Source: Anaerolinea sp. | GTDB taxonomy: Bacteria; Chloroflexota; Anaerolineae; UBA4142 | Direction: 5' to 3' | DNA: 42,080 bases | NCBI GenBank assembly: GCA_020722265.1 | Contig: DYLA01000004.1 | Span: forward strand, 1 to 42,080 | In this document: positions 5,552-41,136 of the stretch, piece by piece | Layout of the letters: every line of letters begins with the position of its first letter | Position numbering within the stretch: position 1 is the first letter of the stretch | Made by a program: the position numbers and the translations under genes | Notes under the pieces: model-generated | The model's database searches: none | Told to the model about the DNA's origin: nothing | Seen by the model: only the letters and a program-made list of their open reading frames with translations

Positions 5552-6544
5552 CTAACGTTCATCGGGGATGAGTTGGAATGTGCCGCACCCGAAATGCGTT
5601 TGCTTGCCGATGTGAAGAATGGACGCCAGTTCGAGGTAGGGCACGAGTGCGGCCGGAATCGTCCAGAAAGTTTGCGTGCCGATCCATCGCCCGGGGAAGC
5701 CGCGCGGCGATGGTTCGAGGGTGTGTCGCTGGAGCGTGCCAGCGGGGGGGTGCGCTTGTTCCAAGGCGAGCCAGATGGCGGTCTGTTCGTCCGGGGTGAG
5801 GAGTGCCCAGACATCGGAGGGCTGGGCGCGCTTGCCCGGCAGGAACAGCGTCATTCGTTCCATCAGCGCGTCAACGAGCGTTTGCAGCGTGGGTACCTCG
5901 TTCAAATCGAAGGGGGTGAGCCAGGTCAAGCGATGAAAGGGGCGCGGTTTTTGGGGCGCGAAGGATAGTCCCTCTGCCCACTGGCTTGGCGTGACGCGCT
6001 GCTCCGAGAGCAAACGCCCCGCGCTGACGACCGGTTCCCACCGCGCCCCGCGCGCCGCGTAAATGGCCGGAATCTCAAAGCGTCCCCACACGCTGTAGGC
6101 GCGATGCCATCGCTCATCGGTGAGCGTTGTGGCGTACTCCATCGCTGGCAAAATCGTTTCGAGGAACAAGCCGTGCTCCGCACTGTCGCCCAGCAGTTTG
6201 AGTTCCCACAGAATCGTCTCACCCTCTCCGTAACTTCGTTTGGCCGGGTAGGCGAACAAGACCGATTCCAGTGGCCACGATGGCAGCGTGGGCGCGTTGT
6301 GCTCTTCGAACTTTTTCTTCTCGGTTTGCCGATCCGGCGAACGGGCGGCTGCCGCGTCCTCCCACGCGGTCAGCGCGTCGCGCCACTCGCGCGCCTGGGG
6401 CGTGGGCAGCCGGCGGACGATGAGCGTACCGAGGGTTTGGGACAATTCGAGTGGGAAATAGCGCGGCAGGTGGACGAGGGGACTGGTCACGCGCCAGACG
6501 ATGAGATAGCGGATGAGGTTAACCGGACTGATAAAATTCCACAT
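5552..6544 (-). CDS. cas6: Cas6-like crRNA-processing endoribonuclease (RAMP)
   Basis: C-terminal G-rich loop HIGKQTHFGCGTF (GxxxxxGxG), LTWLTP strand, WELKLLG, GRWIG typical of Cas6 C-terminal RRM; last gene of an overlapping operon with the Cas7 fusion. Confidence 0.8.
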   Translation of the reverse strand: MWNFISPVNLIRYLIVWRVTSPLVHLPRYFPLELSQTLGTLIVRRLPTPQAREWRDALTAWEDAAAARSPDRQTEKKKFEEHNAPTLPSWPLESVLFAYPAKRSYGEGETILWELKLLGDSAEHGLFLETILPAMEYATTLTDERWHRAYSVWGRFEIPAIYAARGARWEPVVSAGRLLSEQRVTPSQWAEGLSFAPQKPRPFHRLTWLTPFDLNEVPTLQTLVDALMERMTLFLPGKRAQPSDVWALLTPDEQTAIWLALEQAHPPAGTLQRHTLEPSPRGFPGRWIGTQTFWTIPAALVPYLELASILHIGKQTHFGCGTFQLIPDER

Positions 6545-7460
6545 AGCGGACTAGCGTGTAGAGAAGACTGACTTGGGATTTAGACCACTGGCGAATTTTC
6601 CACGCGCTCAACATATCTTTGGCTTCCTGATTCAGCAAACCGAGGAGGCGTCCCCAGTAGAATTGCGCTTCGCCGGTCGCGTCGTCGTCTGCCGTCAAGA
6701 GTTTGTAGAGGATTTTTTGTTCGTGCGGCGGAAGCATCGTGCGGAACACCGTCGCCATATCGAGCATCCGCAGGAATTCTGACGCTTCGAAGGTGAGCAC
6801 GCCTTCGCGTTCGTAATAGCGTGGGTGGAAGACATAGTGCGGCGCGGCGAAAAAGCGGACCCACAGCCGATTCATCGCCAGGCGCGCTTCGTCGTGGATG
6901 ATGCGGCAGAGGATTTCGCCCATCGTCGAGTCTTTGCCGGTCGTTGGGGGACAGATTTGAATCAACCCCCGGAGATCGCCGCCGTGATAGAGGGCGAGTT
7001 CTCGCAGCCAGGGCTGCAACTCGCGATAGTGCAATATCAGCAAGAAACGCTGGGCGTCATGAATGTACAATCCGAGCGCGCGACTCGCGCTCGCATCGGC
7101 TCGCAGCGGCTTGGGCAACTCGGTCACGTAACCCCAAATGACGACCGCGCGACGCGCCAGCGCGTACAGCCCCCAGGCATCGTCCAGGATCGTTTGACAG
7201 GTGGCGCAGTACTGATCGTTGACGCGCGCATAGACCCAGCAGCGCAGACAGGGACCGTCGAGCGCAGAGGGAGGCGCACCGAGTGGAGCAGAGAGGGGCG
7301 CAGGAGGAATCCTTTGACTGCGGACTCGCTCCTGCGTCCCTCCGATTTCCGCCGAGGCGTCACGGGGCGCTTGCCTCTTGTCACTGTTCACATAGCGCAG
7401 CGTGGCGAGCAATTCGGCGCCGTCGCGGCAGCGACGAATCCAATCAAACGGACTGTACAT
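6519..7460 (-). CDS. Putative highly truncated, catalytically dead Cas10-like large subunit
   Basis: CxxC-x10-CxxC Zn finger (CLRC...CATC), then a palm-like segment (AVVIWGYV ... LYIHDAQRFLLIL where YxGGDD would be expected) and a helical C-terminus; overlaps both neighbouring cas genes. Assignment is inferred from context and weak motif order. Confidence 0.55.
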   Translation of the reverse strand: MYSPFDWIRRCRDGAELLATLRYVNSDKRQAPRDASAEIGGTQERVRSQRIPPAPLSAPLGAPPSALDGPCLRCWVYARVNDQYCATCQTILDDAWGLYALARRAVVIWGYVTELPKPLRADASASRALGLYIHDAQRFLLILHYRELQPWLRELALYHGGDLRGLIQICPPTTGKDSTMGEILCRIIHDEARLAMNRLWVRFFAAPHYVFHPRYYEREGVLTFEASEFLRMLDMATVFRTMLPPHEQKILYKLLTADDDATGEAQFYWGRLLGLLNQEAKDMLSAWKIRQWSKSQVSLLYTLVRYVEFYQSG

Positions 7461-10400
7461 TCAACGCGGTCTGCAACTCGGAATAGTGGGCGATGACTCC
7501 GGGTTCCAGCCATTCGCTCGCGCGGAAAGGCTGGCGCCACGCGGTCTCGTCCTGCCCGGTGTAGTGTTTGCTCCAATCGATGAGGAAACTGTCTGGGAGG
7601 AGGCGCAGGCGCAGACTGCCCAAGCCCAGGTGCCGGCAGCGTCCCAATTTGTGCGCGAGGTTCGATTCGAGCACGACGCACCAGACCAAGCGCTGGAGTT
7701 CTTGCCGTTCCAGATTCCAAAAGCGAATCGTAAAGCGCGCACGCGCGCCCGGCAAAATCGCGCGCAGGTAACTGGCTTGCGCGGTGGTGGGCTGGAAATC
7801 GTTCGCGCGTTTGACGATGGGCGCGAGGGGCGCGTGGAGGAACAATCGCCACGTGTTGGCGATGCGATGCAGCGGTACGGCTTTGCCGGCTTGGTGACTC
7901 CATTGCCCGTTGGCGAACGTCCAACCCGAGTATGGATACGGCACTTGGAACCACGCGAGGTCGGGCGATTCGAACAACGCAAAGCCGAAGGCGAGACGTC
8001 CCATAATCGCGTTGTTCTGCCCCAGACCGACCCAGCCGAACAAACTGTCCACGGGATTCAAGTGGTGCAAGTCCTCGCTCGCTTTAGCGGAATCGCTGGC
8101 GATGGCGTAGAGGTGGCGCAGCATCCCCTTGAGACTGCGACTCGGCAGGGCGTAGGTGCGCGTCGCGGGACGGAGGTCCGCTTCGGCAGGCGCCATCGAG
8201 AACGCGTCCCAGCCGTTGACGGTTCCATCGGCGAGTGTAGCGCGGAACGAAGGTTCTCCGCTCTCGCGGACGTGGAGCGGTGTCAAGACCTCTGCCTCCA
8301 CTGCCAAGGTGCCGCAATAGCCACCAAAGGCGCGGTGCGAGATAAAACCTGCCATCGCGCGCGGAGGCGTCTCGGCGACCGGTGTCGGCGGGGCGAACTT
8401 GCTGAGCGCGCTCAAGCGCGCGAGTGCGTCAGTGGCGGCTTGTTGTTTGAGCGTCAGAGTTTGCCATACTCCCGCGCGCGCGAGCGGCGCGTCGCCGAAC
8501 AGGCGAGTGGTCATGCCATCGGTTTGGCTGGTGAGCCACGTGATTTCGGCGACTTGGGCTTTGACCCAGCCAAAGCCACTTGTTTTTTCGCCGCCGAGTG
8601 GAACATCGCCGCGCTGCCAATCTTGGATGAGGTGAGCGAGGAAGGCGAGCGCTTCGAGGTTGGCTTCGGAAATGTCCTGCACATCCAGTTGACATTGGAA
8701 GACGAGGGGCGCGCCGTAGGCGAAGAGGTAATCGTGCTTGGCGGTTTCGACGGGGCGCCCGGTGGCGGGGTCCATTCGCACGCCGTCCATCGAGCACCAC
8801 GTTCGTTCGGGGGCGTGGGGGTCTTGGAGGTACGCGTCGGAGAAAAAGACGGCGCCGCGTTTGCCCTGCGCGCCGAAGAGATGGTCCAGCATCTGCGTCG
8901 TGCGCGGCGATTCGCCCCAGAGGGCTTTGAGCACTTGCGTGGCGCGCTTGCGGAGCGCGCCCTTGAGGGTGCTGCCGGGGATGTAGATTTCCCACGCGGC
9001 TTGTTCTTGCGTGGAGGGCGCCCAGGCGAGCATCCGCATAAACATCGTGTCGTACGGCTTGCCGTACTCGCGCGAGACGTCGCGGTTGAACGGTCCCCCG
9101 GCGCGAAAATCAACGTGATGCGGCTGCACCAACTCTTGGCGCACGCGCGCGCGATGCGCCTGGAGGAACGCGATAAAGTTGCGGTCGTTCACGATGCTCT
9201 TGCGGAGGTTGACCGGGTGAAGCATATGTTGATAGCGCACGCGGCGGTGTTCTTCGAGGAACGTGCGCCACGCCGCGGCGGTGATCCCTTCGGGTGGCTG
9301 GTTGCGATTGTTCCATTGCGCCTCGCTGAGTTTGCCTTCGAGGAGGAGCGTTTTGATGCGCATGTGTTGTTCACGGTTGGCAATTTCCGCGTCCACCCAG
9401 GCATCGCTTTGCAGTAGTGTGATCTGCTGTTCCACTTGGAGATAGAGCCCGGGGAGAATCGGCTTGCACGCGTCCGCGAAAATCTGGGTGAGCGCGGCTT
9501 CGTTCTGAATGTTCGCTGCCACGCCTGCTTCGAGCGCGGGATCGAGTCCGAGCGCGTGTGTGAGTTCGAGCCACGCCTCGCGATTGAACTGGGGCGCGCC
9601 GCCGCGCTGGCGTTCCATCACTTCGAGAATGCGCTTTGCCATATTGGCTTTGTCGCCGAGCGCGTCTTTGAGCGCGGCTTCGGCGGCGGCTTGGCTGGGG
9701 AAGGGTTGGTCGCACAGTGGTTTCGCCGCGTCGAGCACTTTTTGTGAGAGGGGGAATTTGCCTTTGCCCAATTTGGCGAGCGCGGCGGCGCGCAGCGTCC
9801 AAGTCTCTCCCTCGCCGCCGCAGCGGTCTTGCAGCCACACCGCGAGGACGCGGGGCAAATAGTCGGTAAAACGACGCTGCCAATCTTCCGGGCTGATGAT
9901 CGGACCGCCGATGACCATTGCCAGACGCTGGCGGACGGATTCGGGGAGCGCGCGCATCGCTTCGATGAGGAGGCGTCCTTCGATGGCGGCGAACGCCGGC
10001 ACTTCGGGGTCTACTTTGCCCCAGTTCCATCCGACGAGGACGGGATTGACGGCGTTGAATGTCAGTTTGATGCGGAGATGATTCGCGCCGGTCGAGAGGG
10101 TGGGCAGCGTGGCGGGCGTGTCTAAGGGCAAGTCCATTTCGAGGCGGACGCGTCCAAGTCCCTTGCTCTTGCCTGCGCCGAACCAAAAGCGACCTTCCTT
10201 CAATTCCTGGAGCGCATAGTACAGCCGCGCCGCATTGTCCTCTTTTTGCAGTACCGCATCGTTGACCGACATTGCGAAATCGAAGGCGGCGTTGCGGAAA
10301 AGAGTCTCCATTTTGTAATTCGCGTTCGCTTCGGCTGCCCAGCGGTCTTCGTCGAGGCGGAGTCCCATCCGCAAATCGAAAAAGTGATCACGTGGGTACG

Positions 10401-10674
10401 ACTCTTTTTGCAATCGGCACTCGACGCGGGTGATCAGCCCCGCTGGCAACGGGTCGCCGTACAGACGCAACCACAGCCGGTTGAGTAAACCAACGTTCCT
10501 GCCATCGCGCGATTGCCCGATGAACGCGTCCATCAACGCCTGCGCCGTACCGGAGATTTCACCAGCCAGCGAGACGAGTTGTTGCGTTCCATCGCCGTCG
10601 CGGGTGAACAGCGTTTTGCGCGCGTTGCCACGGAAGATTGGTGTCTCGGCGATAAGTTGTCCGTGTAAAAGCAT
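7444..10674 (-). CDS. Single-chain type III effector with three fused Cas7 (Csm3-like RAMP) domains and a large helical insertion (Cas7-11-like), ~1076 aa
   Basis: Three RAMP first strands (LIAETPIFRG, FNAVNPVLVG, AEVLTPLHV), two Cas7 signatures (IPGSTLKGALR, LPSRSLKGMLR), LFG..G motifs (HLFGAQGKRGAVFFSDA, SLFGWV..MGRLAF), three G-rich loops (FGAGKSKGLG, LGGEKTSGFG, LGRCRHLGLG); ATG 10674 follows SD GGAGG. Confidence 0.9.
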   Translation of the reverse strand: MLLHGQLIAETPIFRGNARKTLFTRDGDGTQQLVSLAGEISGTAQALMDAFIGQSRDGRNVGLLNRLWLRLYGDPLPAGLITRVECRLQKESYPRDHFFDLRMGLRLDEDRWAAEANANYKMETLFRNAAFDFAMSVNDAVLQKEDNAARLYYALQELKEGRFWFGAGKSKGLGRVRLEMDLPLDTPATLPTLSTGANHLRIKLTFNAVNPVLVGWNWGKVDPEVPAFAAIEGRLLIEAMRALPESVRQRLAMVIGGPIISPEDWQRRFTDYLPRVLAVWLQDRCGGEGETWTLRAAALAKLGKGKFPLSQKVLDAAKPLCDQPFPSQAAAEAALKDALGDKANMAKRILEVMERQRGGAPQFNREAWLELTHALGLDPALEAGVAANIQNEAALTQIFADACKPILPGLYLQVEQQITLLQSDAWVDAEIANREQHMRIKTLLLEGKLSEAQWNNRNQPPEGITAAAWRTFLEEHRRVRYQHMLHPVNLRKSIVNDRNFIAFLQAHRARVRQELVQPHHVDFRAGGPFNRDVSREYGKPYDTMFMRMLAWAPSTQEQAAWEIYIPGSTLKGALRKRATQVLKALWGESPRTTQMLDHLFGAQGKRGAVFFSDAYLQDPHAPERTWCSMDGVRMDPATGRPVETAKHDYLFAYGAPLVFQCQLDVQDISEANLEALAFLAHLIQDWQRGDVPLGGEKTSGFGWVKAQVAEITWLTSQTDGMTTRLFGDAPLARAGVWQTLTLKQQAATDALARLSALSKFAPPTPVAETPPRAMAGFISHRAFGGYCGTLAVEAEVLTPLHVRESGEPSFRATLADGTVNGWDAFSMAPAEADLRPATRTYALPSRSLKGMLRHLYAIASDSAKASEDLHHLNPVDSLFGWVGLGQNNAIMGRLAFGFALFESPDLAWFQVPYPYSGWTFANGQWSHQAGKAVPLHRIANTWRLFLHAPLAPIVKRANDFQPTTAQASYLRAILPGARARFTIRFWNLERQELQRLVWCVVLESNLAHKLGRCRHLGLGSLRLRLLPDSFLIDWSKHYTGQDETAWRQPFRASEWLEPGVIAHYSELQTALNVQSV

Positions 10675-30011: not shown

Positions 30012-30158
30012 GGGGGAAATCTGGTGATTGCACATATCTGTTGCGCGGGCAGCCTGCCCGCTAGACCCGCGAGCGAGCCGCTTGCCCCACATTGAGATGT
30101 GTACAATCACCAGAAGCATTTGGTTGCGGCTATGCCGCATTATGCTATAATTGCCGCT

Positions 30159-32042
30159 ATGAAACGAGCATGCGAAACGATCGTAGGGTTGGCATTGCTG
30201 CTGCTCGCCGCCGCGCTGCGATTCTACCGACTCGACGCGCCAGACCTGTGGGGCGACGAGGCGTTCAGCATCTGGTTGAGCCAGCAACCGCTCGAGCGCG
30301 TAGTTGCCGGCGCGGCAGACACGCATCCACCCTTCTACCCGCTGCTCCTGTTCTTCTGGCTGCGCGTCGTCGGGGCGAGCGCGTTCGCCACGCGCGCGCT
30401 CGCCGCGCTGACGGGTATTCTCGCCGTTCCGCTGATTTTCGTTTTCGCGCGGCGCATCACTGCGCGTGCGCGCGTCGCGTGGTTTGCCGCGCTCCTGGCA
30501 GCAGTCTCGCCTCTCTTGATCTACTATAGTCAAGAGGCGCGGATGTATGAACTCGTCGCCGTGCTGGCGCTCGCGTCGAGTTATTTTGCCGCGCGCGTGT
30601 TGGAGCGGGGACGCGACGCAGGCGCGTATTTCGTCTCGACCGCGCTCGCGGTGTACACGCACTACTCGGCCTTCTTCAGCCTCGCCGCGCAAAATCTCTT
30701 CGCGCTCGCGCGGCTGCGGCGGGATCGTGCCGCGTGGTGGCGCTGGGTCGCGCTCCAAATCGCGCTCGTGCTCGCGTACGTCCCTTGGATTCTCGCGCAA
30801 GCCGGTTTTTTGCGCGGCAAGGCAAGCGCGCGCTGGGACGAATGGACCTGGCGCGGCGTCGAGATGATTTTTGGCAAAACGTTTCTCGCGTTCGGCATCG
30901 GCTTGACGCTCGATGCGCCACTCGCGCAGGTTTCGGCAGCCGCATTTCTGTTTTTTGCCGCGCTCGGCGCGTTCGCCATCTGGCGCGCGCGCGAACACTC
31001 GGCATGGCTCGCGCCGCTGTGCTTCGGCGTGCCGGTCGTGATCGCGTACCTCATCAACCCCGTGATGCCGTTCTTCTTCGAGCGCTACGTTCTCGTCGCA
31101 CTCCCCGGTTTCCTCGTCACGGTCGCGTTCGGATTGGACGCGCTCGCCACGCGCAGTTTTCGCGCAGCCATCGTCGCGACGATGGTGTTGCTGCTCGTCA
31201 ACGTGTTGGCGCTCGACAACTATTACCACAGCGAGGCGTACGCCAAAGGCAAGTACGGCAAGATGATGGCGTACGTCGCGGCGCGCGCACAGCCGGGCGA
31301 CGCGCTCATCCTAAACAATCCGCTGCAAAAACCGCTCTACCAGTACTATGCGCCGCGCGATGTGCCGGCGTTCTTCCTGCCCGATGGCGCGCCGCTGGAA
31401 GACCCGCAGACGCGGCAGCACCTCGCCGAGATTGCGGACGCGCACACGCGTCTGTGGCTGGTGATGTTCGGCAACCCGGCGGAGTACGATCCGACCGGTT
31501 ATCTGGAACGCTGGCTCGGCGCGCACGCGTTCCGCGCCTACTCCGATGGCTGGGTAGACGCGCGGCTCAGTCTGTACGTGATGCCGCGCGCCCAAACCGC
31601 GATTGGGCGCGACGCGCGCGCGACGCTCGGCGAGTACATCCAACTCATCGGCTATGCGCTCGACCGCGCGGAGATTTCGCCGGGAGAAACGCTCTTGCTG
31701 ACGCTGCGGTGGCAAACGACTGCGCCGCTGGACAAACGTTACACGGTCTTCACACACCTCATCGGCGAAACGAATCCGGCAACGCACTCGCCGGTGTGGG
31801 CGCAGATGGATAGCGAGCCGGTCGGCGGCTCGCGCCCGACGACGACGTGGCAGCCCGGCGAGACGATGGACGATCATTATGGTTTGCTCCTGCCCAAGGC
31901 CGCGCCGCCCGGCGAGTACCAAATCGAAATTGGAATGTACGATACAGCAACGCGCGTGCGCCTGCCGGTGTACGCTGCCGACGGCGCGCGCGTGCCGGAG
32001 GATCGCGTGCTGCTCGGCGCGGTACGCGTCAAGGCGCGGTAG
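30159..32042 (+). CDS. GT-C (ArnT/PMT-like) glycosyltransferase with C-terminal extracellular beta domain
   Basis: LWGDEA, HPPFY, YSQEARMY, ERY; C-terminal YTVFTHL...WAQMD..P; TGCTATAAT 7 nt before the ATG. Confidence 0.85.
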   Translation: MKRACETIVGLALLLLAAALRFYRLDAPDLWGDEAFSIWLSQQPLERVVAGAADTHPPFYPLLLFFWLRVVGASAFATRALAALTGILAVPLIFVFARRITARARVAWFAALLAAVSPLLIYYSQEARMYELVAVLALASSYFAARVLERGRDAGAYFVSTALAVYTHYSAFFSLAAQNLFALARLRRDRAAWWRWVALQIALVLAYVPWILAQAGFLRGKASARWDEWTWRGVEMIFGKTFLAFGIGLTLDAPLAQVSAAAFLFFAALGAFAIWRAREHSAWLAPLCFGVPVVIAYLINPVMPFFFERYVLVALPGFLVTVAFGLDALATRSFRAAIVATMVLLLVNVLALDNYYHSEAYAKGKYGKMMAYVAARAQPGDALILNNPLQKPLYQYYAPRDVPAFFLPDGAPLEDPQTRQHLAEIADAHTRLWLVMFGNPAEYDPTGYLERWLGAHAFRAYSDGWVDARLSLYVMPRAQTAIGRDARATLGEYIQLIGYALDRAEISPGETLLLTLRWQTTAPLDKRYTVFTHLIGETNPATHSPVWAQMDSEPVGGSRPTTTWQPGETMDDHYGLLLPKAAPPGEYQIEIGMYDTATRVRLPVYAADGARVPEDRVLLGAVRVKAR

Positions 32043-32045
32043 AGA

Positions 32046-33833
32046 ATGAACGCGGCGACGACGCAAACATCTGCGCGGCGATGGCGATTGGGCTTCCTGG
32101 GTATAGCCGCGTGGTTACTGCTCTTTATTTTGTGGCGCTTGCCGCAAATGTCGGCGCAGGACGACTACGCCGGCATCACCGCGCTGTGGATACTCGCGGG
32201 CGTCGCGTACGCGCTCGGCGTCGCGTCACCGGGAACAGCGCGGGGCGAGAGGCGCGCGGGGTGGTGCGCGCGCCCGTGCACCGCGCTCGCGCTTTTGGCG
32301 ATTGCGCTGCTCGCGCTCGTTTTGCGTGTGTGGGAGATCGGAACGATTCCCTTTACCCTTGCCGGCGACGAGGCGTCGCAAGGGCTGGAAGCGATCCGCA
32401 TCATCGAGGGAGAGATTCGCAGTCCATTCGTCACCGGTTGGTACGGCGTACCGACGCTCAGTTTCTTTTTCAACAGCCTCACCCTGCGCGCGTTCGGTTA
32501 CACGACGACGGCGCTGCGCCTCCCGTGGGCGCTCGTCGGCGTCGCGGCGGTACTCGTCACGTTCTGGCTGGTGACGCGGCTCAAGGGCGTTCGCTTGGGC
32601 CTCATCACTGCCGCGCTCGTCGCACTGTATCACTATCACATTCACTATTCGCGGCTCGGCTCGAACCAGATTGCGGACACGTTGTTCGTTTCGCTCGCGC
32701 TCTTTTTCTTTTGGCGCGCGCGGCAGTGCAACCGCCACTTGGATTGGGCGGGCGCGGGCGCGGTGTGTGGACTCGCCCTCTACTTTTACGCCGGCGCGCG
32801 CCTCGCGCCGATCGTTCTCGCGGCAGTGGTGTTATACTTGACCGCGTACGACTATCCACGATTCTGGCGCGAGCAACGCGGTGGTCTGCTCGTCGCGCTG
32901 GGCGCGTTTGTCATCGTCGGCGCGCCGATTTTGCAATACGCGCTCGCCTTCCCCGGCGAATTTCACGGGCGCGTGTTCGACACCGGCATCATTCAAAGCG
33001 GCTGGTTGGCTAACGAGACCGTCAAGACCGGTCTGAGCATTCCAACGCTGTTGTGGAATCAGTTTTTGCGCGGCACGCTCGCGTTCAATGTCTATCCCGA
33101 TACGCGCGTGTGGTACGGTTTGCGCACGCCGCTGCTCGATCCATTCTTCGGCGCGCTTTTTCTGCTGGGGCTGGGGTACGGCACCGTACGCGCCCTCGCG
33201 CCGCGCGGCGACCGGCGTCTCTTTCCGATGGTCGCGTGGTGGTGGGGCGGCGCGCTGCTGGGTGGGATGCTCACCGAAAGTCCACCGTCGAGTCAGCGAC
33301 TCATCACACTCTCCGTACCGACGTGCTTTTTCATCGCGCTCGCGCTGACGCGCCTCGGCGCGCTCTGCCGACGCGTGACGCGGCGATTTCCGACGAGACT
33401 TTATCTGGTTGGTGCGGTCATACTCTTTGGCGCGATCAGTCTCAACACGTATTTCGTAGATTACACCCCGCGCCGAATCTACGGCGGCTGGCTCGCGGAA
33501 GCCGCGACGATGCTCGCGCCGCGTCTGAACGAACTCAAGGCGACGCATCGCATCTATTTCGTCGGCGCGCCGACGGCGTACTGGGGCTTTGCGACCTTTC
33601 CCTTTCTCGTCCCCGCCGCCGACGCGCGCGATCTACTCGAACCGCTCCCGCAGCCCGTTCCGTCCGATTGGGTGACGCGCGAGCGCGGCGCCACCTTCAT
33701 CTTCGTCGCGGCGCGAATGTCCGAACTGAAATTCGCGCAAGCCACGTTCCCGCGCGGCGAGTTGCAAGAAATTCGCGCGGCAGAGGATAATCGCGTGCTC
33801 GCGCTGCTCTATGTGGTGCCGCCCAACCGATGA
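32046..33833 (+). CDS. GT-C (ArnT/PMT-like) glycosyltransferase
   Basis: LAGDEA, ALRLP, HIHYSRLG, YFYAGAR, PLLDP, SSQR. Confidence 0.85.
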   Translation: MNAATTQTSARRWRLGFLGIAAWLLLFILWRLPQMSAQDDYAGITALWILAGVAYALGVASPGTARGERRAGWCARPCTALALLAIALLALVLRVWEIGTIPFTLAGDEASQGLEAIRIIEGEIRSPFVTGWYGVPTLSFFFNSLTLRAFGYTTTALRLPWALVGVAAVLVTFWLVTRLKGVRLGLITAALVALYHYHIHYSRLGSNQIADTLFVSLALFFFWRARQCNRHLDWAGAGAVCGLALYFYAGARLAPIVLAAVVLYLTAYDYPRFWREQRGGLLVALGAFVIVGAPILQYALAFPGEFHGRVFDTGIIQSGWLANETVKTGLSIPTLLWNQFLRGTLAFNVYPDTRVWYGLRTPLLDPFFGALFLLGLGYGTVRALAPRGDRRLFPMVAWWWGGALLGGMLTESPPSSQRLITLSVPTCFFIALALTRLGALCRRVTRRFPTRLYLVGAVILFGAISLNTYFVDYTPRRIYGGWLAEAATMLAPRLNELKATHRIYFVGAPTAYWGFATFPFLVPAADARDLLEPLPQPVPSDWVTRERGATFIFVAARMSELKFAQATFPRGELQEIRAAEDNRVLALLYVVPPNR

Positions 33834-36163
33834 ACCAAAAGCTTCTGTCCGTCTCCGCCTGCCTCCTCATCAGCCTCGCGGTCGGCGCGTGGCTCGGTCG
33901 GCAATGGCAAGGCGAAATCGCCGATAGGGTGCTGACTGGGATCGCGTGGCTCGCGAGCCTCGTTGCCGCGCTCGCGCTCGCCAATGCCGCGTGGCTGCGT
34001 ATCGCCGCGCGCGACCCCGCCGCGCCCCTCATCGCTGGGCGTCACCTCGTGCTGACGCGACACGCGGAACGATGGGTGTTGCGCCTGCAACACCTGGGAC
34101 GCTTGGAGTTCGTCGAGTTCGCGCTGACGCTGCCGCGCGCCCAACCCCTCGACCGCGCCGACGCATTCGCGCGCGTCCTGTTCGCGCTATCGCTCGGCGT
34201 CTATGCGGTGACGCGTCTCGTCGCGCTCGACGAATTCCCGATTTACTTTTTCACCGACGAAGCGATCCATCCCGTCCTTGCCTCCGAACTGATCCAGCGC
34301 GGTTTCCGCGACGTACAAGGGAATCTTTTCCCCGCGTACTTTCAGAACGGGTTGTACTGGAACCTGTCGCTCTCGGTTTATCTCCACGCGCTTCCGACCG
34401 CGCTCTTGGGCAAATCCATCTTGGTCACGCGCGCGATGTCGGTGGTCATCGGCATCTTCGGCGCAGCCGCCGTCGGCTTGATCCTCAAACTCTTTTTCCG
34501 CGTCGAGCGCTGGTGGCTCGGCGTCCTGCTCCTTTCGATTACGCCGGCGTGGTTCTTGCACTCGCGCACCGCGTTCGAGACGGCGTTGATGGTGTCGTTC
34601 TACGCGTGGTTCTTGCTCTGCTATCTACTCTATCGCTATCGCTCGCCCCACTATCTTTTCCCCGCGCTCGTCTTTGGTGCGGCGACGTTCTACGCGTACT
34701 CGAACGGACAAACGGTGATGCTCGCGTCCGGCATCCTCTTTCTTGTTTCCGATTTTCGGTATCACCTGCGCCATTGGCGCGTCGCCGCGTGGGGCGCGCT
34801 GCTGTTGGGATTTCTCGCGCTGCCATACGTCTCGTTTCGGGCGCAGATGCCGGAGGCGGTCACGTCGCACCTGCGCATCCTGAACTCGTACTGGCTCTTG
34901 CCGATTCCGCTCGAAGAAAAAATCGGACGCTGGCTCTCGACGTACGCCTACGGCTTGAGCCCGCGCTATTGGTTTCTTCCGAACGAACACGACTTGGTCC
35001 GCCATCGGATGGATGGCTATGGTCACTTGTGGTGGTGGACATTTCCGTTTTTCCTCCTCGGCGTCGCGCAGTGCGTTCGCCACATCAAATCGCCGGCGTC
35101 CCGCGCGCTGATCATCGCCGCGCTCTCCGCGCCATTCGGCTGCGCGTTCGCGGAAATCTTTATCACGCGCGCGCTGCTCTTCGTCCTGCCGGCAAGCATC
35201 CTGACCGCACTCGGACTCGATTGGCTGATTGGTTGGCTCCGCACGCCGCGCGCGCGGCAGATCGCCGCGCTGGGCGTTTTCGTTTCACTCGCGGGCGTGA
35301 ACGTCGCGATGCTGCGCGACGCGCTCGCGAACGGTCCCACGTGGCACACCAACTATGGTTTGTATGGGATGCAGTGGGGCGCGCGCCAACTTTTTTCGCA
35401 AGAGATTCCTGCGCTGGCGCAGCGCCATCCCGCTAGTTCGATTTATCTGACGCCGACGTGGGCGAACGGCACCGATGTCTTTGTCCGCTTTTTCGACGCC
35501 GACCGCTTCAATCTGCGTCTGCTCAACGTGGATCACTTTTTGACGTACAAACGCGATCTCGATTCCAACGCGATTCTCGTGATGACGAAAGAGGAGTATG
35601 ACCGCGCTCAAAAGAGTGGCAAGTTCAAGGAGATCGCGCTGGAGCAGACCTTGAAATACCCGGATGGCAACGATGGCTTTTACTTTGCGCGCCTCGCCTA
35701 CGTGGACGATGTGGACGCGATCTTCGCCGCCGAGCGCGAGGCGCGCCGACATCTCGTGACCGAGACGGTCACACTGAACGGCGAAACCATCCCAATCGCG
35801 CACTCGCTCTTCGACGGCGGGCGCGTGCAAGACTTGTTCGACGGCGACACGTTCACGCTCGCGCGCGGGATGGAAGCGAATCCGCTCATCCTCGAGTTCG
35901 CGTTCCCACAGCCGCGCGCGGTGCGCGGGATCGAAGGTACCTTTGGCAAGATGAACTTTCGGTGGACGCTGCTCGTGTACGCCGACGCCGCCGAACCGCC
36001 GGTGACGTACTGGGCGGAGCATCGCGATTCGCCCGGCGAGCCGCACGTCCAAATGGATTTCGATCGCGGACCCACGCGCGTCTCCAAACTCCGCATCGAA
36101 ATCCTCGCACTCGATGCGGCAGAGCCGGCGCACATTCACGTACGGGAAATCCAGTTACGGTGA
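33830..36163 (+). CDS. GT-C glycosyltransferase with C-terminal soluble domains
   Basis: FFTDEA, FLHSRTAFE, multi-TM; ATGA coupling with the previous gene. Confidence 0.82.
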   Translation: MNQKLLSVSACLLISLAVGAWLGRQWQGEIADRVLTGIAWLASLVAALALANAAWLRIAARDPAAPLIAGRHLVLTRHAERWVLRLQHLGRLEFVEFALTLPRAQPLDRADAFARVLFALSLGVYAVTRLVALDEFPIYFFTDEAIHPVLASELIQRGFRDVQGNLFPAYFQNGLYWNLSLSVYLHALPTALLGKSILVTRAMSVVIGIFGAAAVGLILKLFFRVERWWLGVLLLSITPAWFLHSRTAFETALMVSFYAWFLLCYLLYRYRSPHYLFPALVFGAATFYAYSNGQTVMLASGILFLVSDFRYHLRHWRVAAWGALLLGFLALPYVSFRAQMPEAVTSHLRILNSYWLLPIPLEEKIGRWLSTYAYGLSPRYWFLPNEHDLVRHRMDGYGHLWWWTFPFFLLGVAQCVRHIKSPASRALIIAALSAPFGCAFAEIFITRALLFVLPASILTALGLDWLIGWLRTPRARQIAALGVFVSLAGVNVAMLRDALANGPTWHTNYGLYGMQWGARQLFSQEIPALAQRHPASSIYLTPTWANGTDVFVRFFDADRFNLRLLNVDHFLTYKRDLDSNAILVMTKEEYDRAQKSGKFKEIALEQTLKYPDGNDGFYFARLAYVDDVDAIFAAEREARRHLVTETVTLNGETIPIAHSLFDGGRVQDLFDGDTFTLARGMEANPLILEFAFPQPRAVRGIEGTFGKMNFRWTLLVYADAAEPPVTYWAEHRDSPGEPHVQMDFDRGPTRVSKLRIEILALDAAEPAHIHVREIQLR

Positions 36164-38154
36164 AATCGCTTCGAGTGACTCAACGACAAACCTATCTCGC
36201 GCTGTTCGCGATTCTGCTCCTCGCCGCGTGCTTGCGTCTCTATCGCCTCGACGCGTTGCCGCCGGGCTTGCACTACGACGAGGCGTTCAAAGGAGTTGTG
36301 GCGCGCCAGATTCTTGCGGGTGCAGACCGCTCGCTCTTTTTCCGCGAAAATTTCACCGAAGAACCGATGATGATGTACGCGACCGCCCTCGCGTTCGCGT
36401 TCATCGGCGAGACACCTTGGGCGATTCGACTTGTCTCCGCGCTCGCCGGCATCGCCACGATTGCCGCGCTGTACGCGCTGGCGCGCGCGCTGTTTCGCTC
36501 GCGCGCGCTGGCGCTCCTCGCCGCGTTCGGGTTGGCGATTTTGTACTGGCACGTCAACTTTAGCCGCCTTGGCATGGAGCCGATTCTCACCCCGTTGATG
36601 CTGACGCTGGCGATGGGATTCTTGATTCGTTCCTTGCGCGAGCCACTCGCACACCAGCGACCGGGGGCAGCGGTTGGCGGTCGGCGGTCACTCGTCGGCT
36701 TTGCTCTCGCCGGCGTTTTCCTCGGTGCGACGCAGTACACCTACAAAGCCGCGCTCTTTGTTCCCGTTCTCGTCGCGGCGTGGCTTGGCGTGGAGACGCT
36801 CGCCGACCAGACCTTCTGGACGCGGCACGGGCGCGGACTGGTCATTTGCGCGCTGGTCGCCGTTTTGGTTTTTGCGCCACTTGGGTTATACTTTGCCGCA
36901 CATCCGGGTGAGTTTCTCGAACGCCCGAGCACGGTGACGGCGACGACGAGTGCGGCGAGCATCGCCGAGAACGCGCTCAAGGTCGCGGGAATGTTCTTTG
37001 TGCGCGGTGACGAGAATCCGCGCAGCAACTTGCCCGGGCGTCCCACGCTCGATCCGTTTCTCGCGCTCGGATTCGTCGCCGGGCTCGTGGCGTGCGTCGC
37101 GCGCATCCACCGCACCGAAGCGCGCTTGCTCCTCCTCTGGCTCGGCGTGATGACGCTGCCGAGTGTTCTGACCGATTACGCGCCGCACTTTGGGCGCAGC
37201 ATCGGCGCGACGCCGGCAATCGCCCTCGTCGTCGCCTACGGATTCGGCGCGATACTGCAAACGCTCGAACGCCGACTGCCGGCTGCCGACCGCCGACGGG
37301 TGGCTGCCTACTGCCTACTGCTCGCCGGACTCGCGTTTAGCACGTTCGCGACCGCGCGCGATTATTTCGCGGTGTGGGGCACGCGCACCGGCTTGTTCGA
37401 CTCGTTCGATGTGGGGTATCTCGCGCTCGCGGAAAAACTGCGCGCGCGTCCCGCCGACGAAACGCTGTACCTTTCGCCGGTGGCAGAGCAGCATTACACG
37501 ATACAGTTCGGGCTCGCGGGACGCGCCGCGCGCAGTTTCGATGGTCGGCGCGTACTGGTGGTGCCGCCGGCACGCCCGGCGGCGTACGGCATCGTCACGC
37601 GCGAGGACGCGCGTTCGCTGGCGCGGCTGGAAGCGATTTTCCCGGAGGTGCGCGTCGTCGGAACAATACGCGACTATCTCGGCAATCCGTACGCGGCGAT
37701 TGCGCGCGTTAGGGGCGCACCGCACCTTGCGCCGCAGGTGGTCGTGCGCGCGCGGCTGGATGACGCCATCGAACTGACTGGCGCCGACGTGACGCGCGAG
37801 GGGAAGCGTATCCTCATCACCGCGTACTGGAGTTGCCGCGCCGAGACGCGCACCGATTACACCGTCTTTGCGCATCTGGTCGGCGCGCGCAACCCGGCCA
37901 CTGGGTCGCCGGTGTGGGCACAGGAGGATACGCGCCCCGGCCGTGGCTCGTATCCGACGCCGCGCTGGCGCGCCGGCGAAATCGTGATAGAGGAATATCA
38001 ACTGACGCTGCCGGCAGATTTGCCGCGCGGCGAATACACCATCGAAATGGGAATGTATATCTTAGAAACAGGCGCGCGGGCGCGCGTGGTGGATACGCGC
38101 GGTGCGCCGATGGAGAGTGACCGTGTCGTTCTCAAGAGAATCACGCTACCGTAA
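36160..38154 (+). CDS. GT-C glycosyltransferase with C-terminal extracellular beta domain
   Basis: PPGLHYDEA, WHVNFSRLG, PHFGR; GTGA coupling; C-terminal domain paralogous to that of 30159-32042 (NPATGSPVWAQ vs NPATHSPVWAQ). Confidence 0.85.
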   Translation: MKSLRVTQRQTYLALFAILLLAACLRLYRLDALPPGLHYDEAFKGVVARQILAGADRSLFFRENFTEEPMMMYATALAFAFIGETPWAIRLVSALAGIATIAALYALARALFRSRALALLAAFGLAILYWHVNFSRLGMEPILTPLMLTLAMGFLIRSLREPLAHQRPGAAVGGRRSLVGFALAGVFLGATQYTYKAALFVPVLVAAWLGVETLADQTFWTRHGRGLVICALVAVLVFAPLGLYFAAHPGEFLERPSTVTATTSAASIAENALKVAGMFFVRGDENPRSNLPGRPTLDPFLALGFVAGLVACVARIHRTEARLLLLWLGVMTLPSVLTDYAPHFGRSIGATPAIALVVAYGFGAILQTLERRLPAADRRRVAAYCLLLAGLAFSTFATARDYFAVWGTRTGLFDSFDVGYLALAEKLRARPADETLYLSPVAEQHYTIQFGLAGRAARSFDGRRVLVVPPARPAAYGIVTREDARSLARLEAIFPEVRVVGTIRDYLGNPYAAIARVRGAPHLAPQVVVRARLDDAIELTGADVTREGKRILITAYWSCRAETRTDYTVFAHLVGARNPATGSPVWAQEDTRPGRGSYPTPRWRAGEIVIEEYQLTLPADLPRGEYTIEMGMYILETGARARVVDTRGAPMESDRVVLKRITLP

Positions 38155-38173
38155 CATCGTTTCTTCGGGTGAG

Positions 38174-38755
38174 ATGCCTCGCGGCGCCAGGTCGGTGCCC
38201 ATCGGGCTCGTCGGCGCGATCGCGGCATTCCTCCTGATCCTCTGCTGCGCGTGCGCCGGCTTGCTCATCGGTTTGCAATTGAGCGGCGCGAACGCGTCGC
38301 TGCTGAACCGCGCGTCCTCCGCCTTCGCGCCGGCGACGCCGACGGTGGACAAGAACGCGCCCGTGCCGCTCAAGAAACCGGGCTTGGCGGGCAATGGACT
38401 CGAAGTGACTGTCCTGGCGATGCAGCGTCCGCTCAAAGTCGAAGGTGGACTCCAACTTCCCGCTGATCAACAACTGATCCTCGTGACGGTGAATATCCGC
38501 AATACCAAGAAAACCGGCGCCGCGCTCAAAGTGACCGCCGCCGATTTCAAGGTCAAGGGGGATGGCGGGCTGACGTACGACGCGAACCCCAAGACTGTGA
38601 CGATTCCCGGGATGCTGACCGAGTTGAATCTTGCGCCCGGCAAGAGCCAGGAAGCGGAATTGATCTACCAGATCGCCGTGGACGATTCGGGGCTCAAGTT
38701 GTATTGGAAAGTCGGCAGCGCGACGCGTACTTTCTTGCTCGAACAAACGAAATGA
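38174..38755 (+). CDS. Membrane-anchored DUF4352-like Ig-fold protein
   Basis: N-terminal TM with CCAC; VTVNIRNT, DFKV..GG.TY, LAPGKSQEAELIYQI. Confidence 0.7.
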   Translation: MPRGARSVPIGLVGAIAAFLLILCCACAGLLIGLQLSGANASLLNRASSAFAPATPTVDKNAPVPLKKPGLAGNGLEVTVLAMQRPLKVEGGLQLPADQQLILVTVNIRNTKKTGAALKVTAADFKVKGDGGLTYDANPKTVTIPGMLTELNLAPGKSQEAELIYQIAVDDSGLKLYWKVGSATRTFLLEQTK

Positions 38756-41136
38756 TACTGCTGCTCGCGGCGAGTGTCTGGCTGATCGCGTTGTTCATCG
38801 CGCTGGCACAGCGCCGCGCCCGCGAGGCTTGGCGGGATGTGCTTGCCATCGGCGTCGTCGGCGCGGCGACCGCCGGTTTTTTCTGGCGATTGCTCGCGGG
38901 CCAGGTGTGGATGCCGGCAGGCGGCGGCGACCTCGCCCAGTTTCTCTATCCGACGTACTCCTTCGCTGCCGCGTGGTGGCGGCGCGGCGTCCTCCCGCTC
39001 TGGAACCCGTACCTCTTTGCCGGCGCGCCGTTCCTCGGCGACATCCAGTCCGGCATTTTCTATCCGCTCAACCTTCTTACTTTTCTGCTTTCCTCGCCGC
39101 TCACCTTCCGTGATTTGGAATTTCTTTCCGTCCTGCATTTTTTCCTCGCCGGCGCGGGGATGTATCTCTTTTTGCGATTTGGGCGCTGGGGACGACCAAG
39201 TTCGAGGTTCGCGGTTCAAGGTTCAAACTTTGAATCACGAACTGGGGACTCGCTCGCGCGTCCTGCCGCGCTCGCTGGCGCGCTCGCGTTCGAGTTTAGC
39301 GATCTGTTCATCACGCACTTTGGGAATCTCAACTTGATCGCGGTCGCGGCGTGGCTGCCGCTGGTGCTGCTGTTCTACCGCCGCGCGGTGACGGAGCGGC
39401 GCGCGGCGCTCGCGGCGATTGCCGGCATTCTGCTCGCGGTAGCATTCCTCGCCGGGCACATTCAAGCGTTCTTGTTCATCGTGTTCGCGCTGGGGCTGTT
39501 CGCGATTTGGATGACGGTGACCGGCAGTCGGCGGTCTGCGCTCGTCGGTCTAGCCGTCGTCGCGCTCGTCGCGTTTGGGCTCGCTGCGCCCGCGCTGCTC
39601 CCCGCGCTCGAATTCGCGCAACACACGGTGCGCGCCACCTTTGCGTACGAGCAAGCCGCGCAGTACTCGCTGCCGCCGGCGCAATTGATCGGGCTGTTCG
39701 TTCCCGGCTTTTTCGGACGCGGACCGCAGCACGCGTGGGGACCCTGGGCGCGCGTCGAAGTCGGCTACATCGGCGTCCTGCCGATGCTGCTCGCGCTGCT
39801 CGCGTTGATTCTGCGCCGCGACGCGCCGACGCGATTCTGGGGCGCGTTCGCGCTCGTGGGGCTCGCGCTCGCGCTGGGCGGCTATGCGATTTTGCACGGT
39901 TGGCTCTACCAACTGGTTCCCGGCTTTGGGCAGTTGCGCGCCCCCGCGCGATTCATCGTGCTGATGGATTTCGCGCTCGCCGCGCTCGCCGCGTTCGGGT
40001 TCGATACACTCTTGCGCGCCCTCCCACACGAAAGTGCGCGCGCGTTCAAGCGTATCGTTCGCGCCGCGCCGTTCGTGTTTTGGCTGATCGCGCTGCCCGC
40101 CGGCGCGACGGCGTACGCGATTTTGATTCTGGGGCAGGGACAGGACGCGGTCTTGTTCGCGCGCATCGCCAACGCCGCGAACGCGCTGGCGTTCTTCATC
40201 CTGCTCCTCGCGTGCGCGTGCGCGCTCGTCATCGCGCGCGGCACACGCTTCTTTCACCCGCGCGTGTGGGCAATCGCCGCGCTCGCGCTCATCGGTTTCG
40301 ATCTCTTTTCGCTTGGCGCGTACGTGGACGCGAGTACCGACGACCCAACGCGCGTGTTCGAGCATCCGGGCGCGGTGGCGTTTCTCCGGAGCGATGGCAG
40401 TCTCTTTCGCGTGGACTCACAGGGAACCGGCGTGGAGAACGTGTGGACTGCCGACACCGCGCTCCTCTACGGCATCGGCGACGTGAACGGCGACAACCCG
40501 CTCGTGCTAGCGGATTTCGACCGGTACTGGCAAGCGCTTGGCAGTCGCTCGTCGCCGCTGTACGATTTGCTCAACACCAAGTATTTGCTCGCGCGCAAGA
40601 GCGCGCCGGTGGATCGCGCGAAATTCCACCTCGCGTTCGATGACGCGGCGTTCAATATTTACACGAACGCGCGTGTCCTGCCGCGCGCGTTCATCGTCGC
40701 TGAGGCGCGCACCGCGACGGATCACGCTGCCGCGCTCGCGGCGATTCACGCCCCCGACTTTGACCCCGCGCGGATGGCGGTGCTGGAGACCGCCGACACG
40801 CGCGCGGCGGCGGTCGGTGGTCTGCCGTCGGCAGTCGCAATCGTTGGCTATGGTCCCAACGAGATTCTGCTGGAGGTGACCGCGCCGGGCGGCGGCATGT
40901 TGGTGTTGAGCGAGGTGTACTATCCCGGCTGGCGCGCGTGGGTGGACGATCGCGAAACGTCCGTGCTGCGCGCGAACTATCTTTTCCGCGCGGTCGAGTT
41001 GCCGGCGGGGGCGCGTCGCGTGCGGCTGCTGTACGATCCGCTGTCGTTCCAGGCCGGGGTGGGGCTATTCGCGGCGACCGCGCTGGCGTTGGGCGCGACC
41101 GTTTGGTGGCAATGGCGCTCGCGGCGCGGGGCTTGA
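38752..41136 (+). CDS. YfhO-family GT-C membrane protein
   Basis: DLAQFLYP, LPLWNPYLFAGAPFLGDIQ..FYP, RAPARF, LSEVYYPGWRAWVD, RANYLFRAV. Confidence 0.88.
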   Translation: MILLLAASVWLIALFIALAQRRAREAWRDVLAIGVVGAATAGFFWRLLAGQVWMPAGGGDLAQFLYPTYSFAAAWWRRGVLPLWNPYLFAGAPFLGDIQSGIFYPLNLLTFLLSSPLTFRDLEFLSVLHFFLAGAGMYLFLRFGRWGRPSSRFAVQGSNFESRTGDSLARPAALAGALAFEFSDLFITHFGNLNLIAVAAWLPLVLLFYRRAVTERRAALAAIAGILLAVAFLAGHIQAFLFIVFALGLFAIWMTVTGSRRSALVGLAVVALVAFGLAAPALLPALEFAQHTVRATFAYEQAAQYSLPPAQLIGLFVPGFFGRGPQHAWGPWARVEVGYIGVLPMLLALLALILRRDAPTRFWGAFALVGLALALGGYAILHGWLYQLVPGFGQLRAPARFIVLMDFALAALAAFGFDTLLRALPHESARAFKRIVRAAPFVFWLIALPAGATAYAILILGQGQDAVLFARIANAANALAFFILLLACACALVIARGTRFFHPRVWAIAALALIGFDLFSLGAYVDASTDDPTRVFEHPGAVAFLRSDGSLFRVDSQGTGVENVWTADTALLYGIGDVNGDNPLVLADFDRYWQALGSRSSPLYDLLNTKYLLARKSAPVDRAKFHLAFDDAAFNIYTNARVLPRAFIVAEARTATDHAAALAAIHAPDFDPARMAVLETADTRAAAVGGLPSAVAIVGYGPNEILLEVTAPGGGMLVLSEVYYPGWRAWVDDRETSVLRANYLFRAVELPAGARRVRLLYDPLSFQAGVGLFAATALALGATVWWQWRSRRGA

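Follow-up and report, generated by a model that had tools for sequence, protein, structure and literature searches.

The 42,080-nucleotide stretch of Anaerolinea sp. DNA analyzed here (contig DYLA01000004.1; the window) carries at 6519..7460, on the minus strand, an open frame of 313 aa that runs from ATG to TAA. The frame encodes Cas10i, the truncated Cas10 of type III-I CRISPR systems. Cas10i belongs to a named family, has a Cas10-like fold consisting of a finger, one palm and a Csm2-like tail, has lost the catalytic motifs, is tightly coupled to the genes on either side, and is under purifying selection. We consider it likely that Cas10i acts as a non-signalling scaffold on the effector Cas7-11i, within a complex that cleaves RNA and receives its CRISPR RNA (crRNA) in trans. 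An initial annotation, made from the letters of the window, had described the frame as a 313-aa Cas10 remnant, and this description is borne out by a full-length family match, by a match to the Cas10 fold, and by the published account of III-I (PMC12669027). Makarova et al. (Nat Microbiol 2025, PMC12669027) introduced subtype III-I, so the gene is a rediscovery of a named 2025 family and not a new system, and the protein itself is one further copy of that family.

When the window was compared with NCBIfam (release 20.0, June 2026), Cas10i matched NF049958 (type III-I Cas10i) with 387 bits (cut-off 175, E 5e-116), residues 1-311 aligning to profile positions 1-295. The upstream gene product scored 1833 bits against NF049957 (cut-off 800) and the downstream product 283 bits against NF049959 (cut-off 160), which gives the gene order cas7-11i, cas10i, cas6i. 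The cas10i gene shares 17 nt with the end of cas7-11i and 26 nt with the start of cas6i. Among the loci fetched for neighborhood counts (the best 80 of 127), cas7-11i lay upstream of cas10i in 78 and cas6i lay downstream in 79. The initial annotation had expected standard pipelines to call the protein hypothetical. This was so for Pfam, which gave only a sub-threshold zinc-finger match, for PADLOC, which gave no match, and for the relatives, which carry the label "hypothetical protein", but not for NCBIfam, which names Cas10i.

Homologues numbered 370 at E<=0.001 and fell into 88 clusters at 50% identity. The gene was present in 33 of 301 sampled genomes of the class Anaerolineae, and no relative was found in the viral contigs of IMG/VR. 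Cas10i is reduced yet maintained under purifying selection: the ratio of nonsynonymous to synonymous substitution rates (dN/dS) was 0.07-0.22 in 10 of 10 orthologue pairs, and the length was constant, with a median of 294 aa in 160 full-length relatives.

The AlphaFold2 model of Cas10i, with a predicted local distance difference test (pLDDT) of 88 and a predicted template modelling score (pTM) of 0.85, agreed with the parts that had been read from the sequence. The short helical N-terminus was found as helices within residues 4-28, and D6, R9 and E16 are invariant in 109/109 relatives. The pattern CLRC-x10-CATC lies at 71-74 and 85-88 with 10 residues between, and its four cysteines (C71, C74, C85 and C88) are the sole invariant columns in 40/40 diverse sequences. 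The helical tail spans residues 226-306, with W269-G270-R271 and W292 invariant. The low-complexity linker was likewise found to be disordered at residues ~37-51, with one refinement: it has 47 residues versus a family median of 24, a length equalled in 2/109 relatives, and with its ~23 extra residues it is largely an insertion private to this copy.

The loss of the HD and GGDD motifs was also confirmed. The Cas10i sequence lacks GGDD, and no HD domain was found, the only HD dipeptides (at 134 and 189) falling within the palm. A single palm (residues ~99-224) is present, and a second palm was not found in the protein, which thus also lacks the N-terminal polymerase/cyclase portion of Cas10. 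In place of YxGGDD, the initial annotation had noted a palm-like alternation containing LYIHDAQRFLLIL. In the model this stretch forms a beta-hairpin (strands 128-133 and 138-144) that would occupy the place of the Cas10 YxGGDD motif in an inferred residue register, and its Tyr-to-Phe spacing equals the spacing in GGDD motifs taken from other Cas10 proteins. None of 207 Cas10i relatives has GG[DE][DE] at the hairpin; two matches to this pattern sit in the N-terminal linker. In a genome-wide search, the Pfam Cas10 palm2 model PF22335 did not match cas10i.

The family and fold searches, together with the account of III-I in PMC12669027, support a Cas10 ancestry, the order of the domains and the absence of both HD and GGDD. 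The best structural match was 8s9t chain C (model residues 2-312 versus 8s9t_C 9-553), which is also the best match reported for the published III-I Cas10i, with a nearly equal Z. The order of finger, palm and helical tail that the initial annotation had taken from Cas10 was seen in the Foldseek comparison with Cas10/Csm1 (III-A) and Cmr2 (III-B) (ranks 1-33 among the matches listed), a structural likeness without detectable sequence similarity. However, Csm1 and Cmr2 have two palms with two Asp motifs, and Csm1 has an HD domain, whereas Cas10i has one palm and no HD; the distance from the finger to GGDD is ~170-250 residues in Csm1/Cmr2, compared with ~50-65 to the equivalent hairpin in Cas10i. 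The protein in 8s9t_C, the type III-Dv Cas10 of Synechocystis (PMC11026444), is described as having ~555 aa, keeping GGDD and making cyclic oligoadenylate, unlike Cas10i, and as working in a complex with Cas5 and Csx19, neither of which is in the III-I locus here. The published III-I Cas10i family (PMC12669027; NF049958; reference Desulfonema magnum WP_207677911) has the same gene order, a disrupted GGDD and Chloroflexota-type relatives. The copy in the window differs from the family only in its longer Pro/Ala linker and in Ala136 in place of the usual acid, which is no difference of kind.

The initial annotation had also pointed to the absence of CARF genes. Pfam found no CARF or SAVED effector gene among the 36 open reading frames of the window, no shared accessory cluster was found in 81 loci, and the three-gene operon had no Cas5 or nuclease match by Pfam, NCBIfam, PADLOC or neighbor clustering. 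The absence applies to the locus but not to the genome, in which a type III-A operon on another contig (C189; L121:31-7722) encodes Csm2-5, Cas6 and an 820-aa Cas10 with HD, MDVD and GGDD, the Cas10 gene being followed by this genome's CARF-PD-(D/E)xK gene.

For Cas7-11i, the model and the fold search bore out a fusion of three Cas7 domains that carries a helical insert, the best Foldseek matches being Cas7-11/gRAMP (E 8e-15). D542 and D823 are invariant in 54/54 sequences. In the first Cas7 domain, D26 and D110 are invariant, and an invariant Lys20 stands where the catalytic Asp is expected, as judged by motif spacing versus this genome's Csm3 in a region that hhalign left unaligned. The type III-E effector Cas7-11e (gRAMP) has the same fused multi-Cas7 fold and, as predicted for III-I, no cyclic oligoadenylate signalling. 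On the other hand, III-E lacks cas10 while III-I has cas10i, and the two Cas7 fusions were derived independently according to PMC12669027. Cas7-11i scored 50 bits against NF041225, far under the cut-off of 700. For an orthologous pair of Cas10i and Cas7-11i, PMC12669027 gives an AlphaFold3 score of 0.75, and crRNA-guided RNA cleavage by III-I is a prediction of the same paper.

In the mechanism that we propose, Cas10i would dock on Cas7-11i near the 5' end of the crRNA, and its helical tail would line the target RNA like a small subunit. Cas6i would process guides out of an array at another genomic site. The Cas7 domains would then cut complementary RNA, probably via D542 and D823, and the output would be target-RNA cleavage alone, with neither cyclic oligoadenylate nor cleavage of single-stranded DNA. 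In this genome the array would be that of contig C43 (L001), the only one found in a genome-wide scan, with 71 identical 37-nt repeats and no cas locus linked to it in the assembly; 69 of its spacers gave only three 17-nt self matches. No array was found among the 20 largest repeat families of the window, and Rfam gave no match in the window. In 782 kb of sequence flanking 80 III-I loci, screens that required near-exact repeats and were run without validation found neither near-identical arrays nor two-repeat mini-arrays. Since these screens found no array beside the main-clade loci, the simplest reading is that the guides are supplied in trans.

An array was nevertheless found in a divergent clade. 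Four weak matches of a deep search (P0201, P0202, P0205 and P0207) keep the Cys finger and score far under the NCBIfam cut-off, and a metagenome scan with three of the four returned three loci (L118, L119 and L120). L118:1072-6018 (metagenome contig Ga0209467_1002653) is a III-I-like operon with the same three genes, all below the cut-offs (667/800 bits for the Cas7 fusion, 38/175 for the Cas10i-like protein and 37/160 for Cas6). Its 889-aa Cas7 fusion lacks residues ~223-422 of the window Cas7-11i (~200 aa of the helical insert) as well as D26; the Cas10i-like protein has 285 aa and Cas6 has 306 aa. Directly upstream, on the same strand, lies a degenerate array of five 36-nt repeats at a spacing of 65-74 nt, which have a hairpin and a 3' end resembling that of type III repeats. 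L118 was the only array-linked locus among the loci examined, and its array ties the III-I lineage to CRISPR guides, on one locus. Comparison of the L118 spacers with phages gave nothing convincing (best E 0.3). The contigs of L119 and L120 are short and stop before the upstream DNA; within the part that they cover, the gene order is retained. With its native repeat, L118 allows a directly testable first reconstitution of III-I.

Several observations weigh against the scaffold mechanism. A literature search yielded no experiment on any III-I system. The match to 8s9t_C has a high root-mean-square deviation (6.8) and 9% identity. When Cas10i was compared by profiles with 13 canonical Cas10 C-terminal halves, only the Cys finger was aligned, with a probability of 2%, and the palm was not, so its GGDD-equivalent register is inferred rather than fixed by sequence. 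A permissive screen of 1.5 kb on either side, which detects L118 as a positive control and is the more reliable of the screens, found an array at 0/81 main-clade loci. The cas1 gene was not enriched, being present in 21/32 genomes with III-I versus 184/268 without, where the counts include weak partial matches and the genomes without III-I were obtained by subtraction. In four genomes (G082, G120, G196 and G262), III-I is the sole RAMP locus seen, and proxies detected neither cas1 nor a canonical Cas10 palm nor an array pattern; these are drafts, 91-94% complete in 280-500 contigs, and the array pattern is a weak proxy that sees only repeats with one end motif and gives some spurious single matches.

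To describe Cas10i as purely structural, as the initial annotation did, may be too strong, because residues of III-Dv Cas10 contribute to a cleavage site and R271 of Cas10i is invariant. It is possible, although we hold it clearly less likely, that Cas10i does more than serve as a scaffold, its tail aiding one Cas7 cut site, or its finger and palm sensing the 3' flank of the target and gating cleavage; both would be compatible with the scaffold role. According to PMC11026444, H487 and R490 of III-Dv Cas10 belong to Cas7 cleavage site 3, their mutation partly lowers cleavage, and the target's 3' end exits through a channel on Cas10. R271 is found in 109/109 close and 36/36 diverse relatives of Cas10i, and R240 in 107/109. 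However, R240 and R271 could not be mapped onto III-Dv R490, the invariant Trp, Gly and Arg residues could serve packing or an interface, and only some of these residues are retained in the divergent subfamily.

A different possibility, which we regard as unlikely, is that CRISPR immunity is no longer the role of the main III-I clade, which would have become a domesticated, array-independent RNA-binding complex that uses another small-RNA guide, similar to HRAMP/ARAMP. The missing arrays and mini-arrays in 81 loci would fit this, as would the lack of single-repeat relics in 66 cas7-11i leaders, of cas1 enrichment, and of relatives in IMG/VR. Cas7-11i is, moreover, 55-72% identical across four phylum labels, and housekeeping neighborhoods are stable within clades. 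In the Cas7-11i tree (52 rows, midpoint root), rows sharing a phylum label group together, and those labelled other than Chloroflexota branch from among the Chloroflexota rows; neighbor genes are common within clades only, the sole cross-clade cluster being a histidine-kinase-type ATPase family. Against domestication, the dedicated Cas6 is retained in 79/80 loci, an array accompanies the sister locus L118, and cas1 is present in 5/5 better-assembled III-I genomes (a chosen set). Arrays are also often lost from draft genomes. Array-less type III loci are described as common in PMC12669027. The HRAMP/ARAMP modules of PMC8730458 are type III-derived and without an adjacent array, as is III-I, but they occur in archaea and combine Cas5 and Cas7 with separate nucleases, whereas III-I includes Cas6 and lacks both Cas5 and a linked nuclease.

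These observations could be joined in a history that we offer with little confidence. III-I may have begun linked to an array, as in the L118 clade with its degenerate repeats, and the main clade may have become a conserved ribonucleoprotein among housekeeping genes, array-free and signalling-free, with borrowed crRNA or a non-CRISPR guide and a non-antiviral job; Cas10i would then represent the smallest Cas10 core that assembly of the particle requires.

It is very improbable that the Cas10i palm still binds nucleotides or catalyzes a reaction, in altered form, by means of an acidic hairpin (consensus His-Asp-Glu at 134-136). Although D135 is found in 100/109 close and 31/36 diverse relatives and an acid at 136 in 88/109, this copy has Ala136, the hairpin glycines are gone, and one palm is left. 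In addition, no Asp is conserved in the first palm strand (mostly Phe at 111 and mostly Asn at 113), the motif is absent in the divergent subfamily, and the locus has no sensor or effector gene linked to it. That cas10i is a decaying pseudogene or a chance frame, as the lost motifs and a long overlapping antisense frame (7402-9417, +) might suggest, is refuted by the low dN/dS, the 370 homologues and the constant length.

As a two-protein effector that is predicted to cleave RNA without collateral signalling, III-I provides a test case; it is attractive as a tool of small size and also as an intermediate between multi-subunit III-D and single-protein III-E.

Table 1. Features of the type III-I locus in the window
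Feature	Position	Strand	Remarks
cas7-11i, 1076-aa effector, three fused Cas7 domains and helical insert	7444..10674	-	NF049957; start at 10674 set from NCBIfam match and orthologues
cas10i, truncated subtype III-I Cas10 without HD domain or GGDD	6519..7460	-	313 aa
Cas10i N-terminal helix pair, residues 1-28	7377..7460	-	AlphaFold2 (helices 4-9, 14-28); Cas10 whole-chain alignment begins here
Cas10i Pro/Ala-rich disordered linker, residues ~30-60	7281..7373	-	pLDDT<50 at 37-40, 43-51
Cas10i CxxC-x10-CxxC putative zinc finger, C71/C74/C85/C88	7197..7250	-	invariant Cys; predicted
Cas10i single palm (RRM/GGDEF-like), residues ~99-224	6789..7166	-	AlphaFold2 alpha/beta fold
Cas10i beta-hairpin LYIHDAQRFLLIL, residues 131-143	7032..7070	-	strands 128-133, 138-144; turn 134-137
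Cas10i helical C-terminal bundle (D4, small-subunit-like), residues ~226-309	6534..6785	-	AlphaFold2 (model helices 226-306)
cas6i, 330-aa Cas6 with C-terminal glycine loop	5552..6544	-	NF049959; Pfam PF10040 over cut-off

One candidate guide relic, a hairpin in the cas7-11i leader that resembles a repeat, was rejected: it is not conserved in other leaders and had a background score against a matrix of four L118 repeats. The repeat in locus L075 is a tandem repeat without spacers. An apparent fusion of Cas7-11i and Cas10i in L018 was due to a run of N in the assembly. In G210:C12:24635-25672, cas10i is divided over two open frames, and P0122, a long first match, also aligns in two stretches. 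The matches of the class genome survey included a 1253-aa frame in G078.

In one clade of 11 loci (L012, L013, L014, L020, L022, L025, L027, L028, L029, L031 and L032), rtcA, which encodes RNA 3'-terminal phosphate cyclase, lies directly upstream of cas7-11i on the same strand. This adjacency is probably shared synteny, suggestive as it is beside a predicted RNase that would leave cyclic phosphates. Downstream of cas6i in L055 (4910-7090) is a 727-aa open reading frame whose start looked helicase-like by eye.

In the window, housekeeping genes surround the three genes: dnaA, a mutY-like gene, a GNAT gene, 2-oxoacid:ferredoxin oxidoreductase and degV. Unrelated to cas10i, a run of large membrane proteins in which PMT_2 and YfhO domains occur (a glycosyltransferase cluster) lies at 30099-41136 (+). 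Elsewhere in the genome, contig C1 (L122:625-6622) has a III-F-like module (Cas10f-like, Cas5 and Cas7) and, after it, a stand-alone reverse transcriptase and cas1; the reverse transcriptase beside this module may deserve attention.
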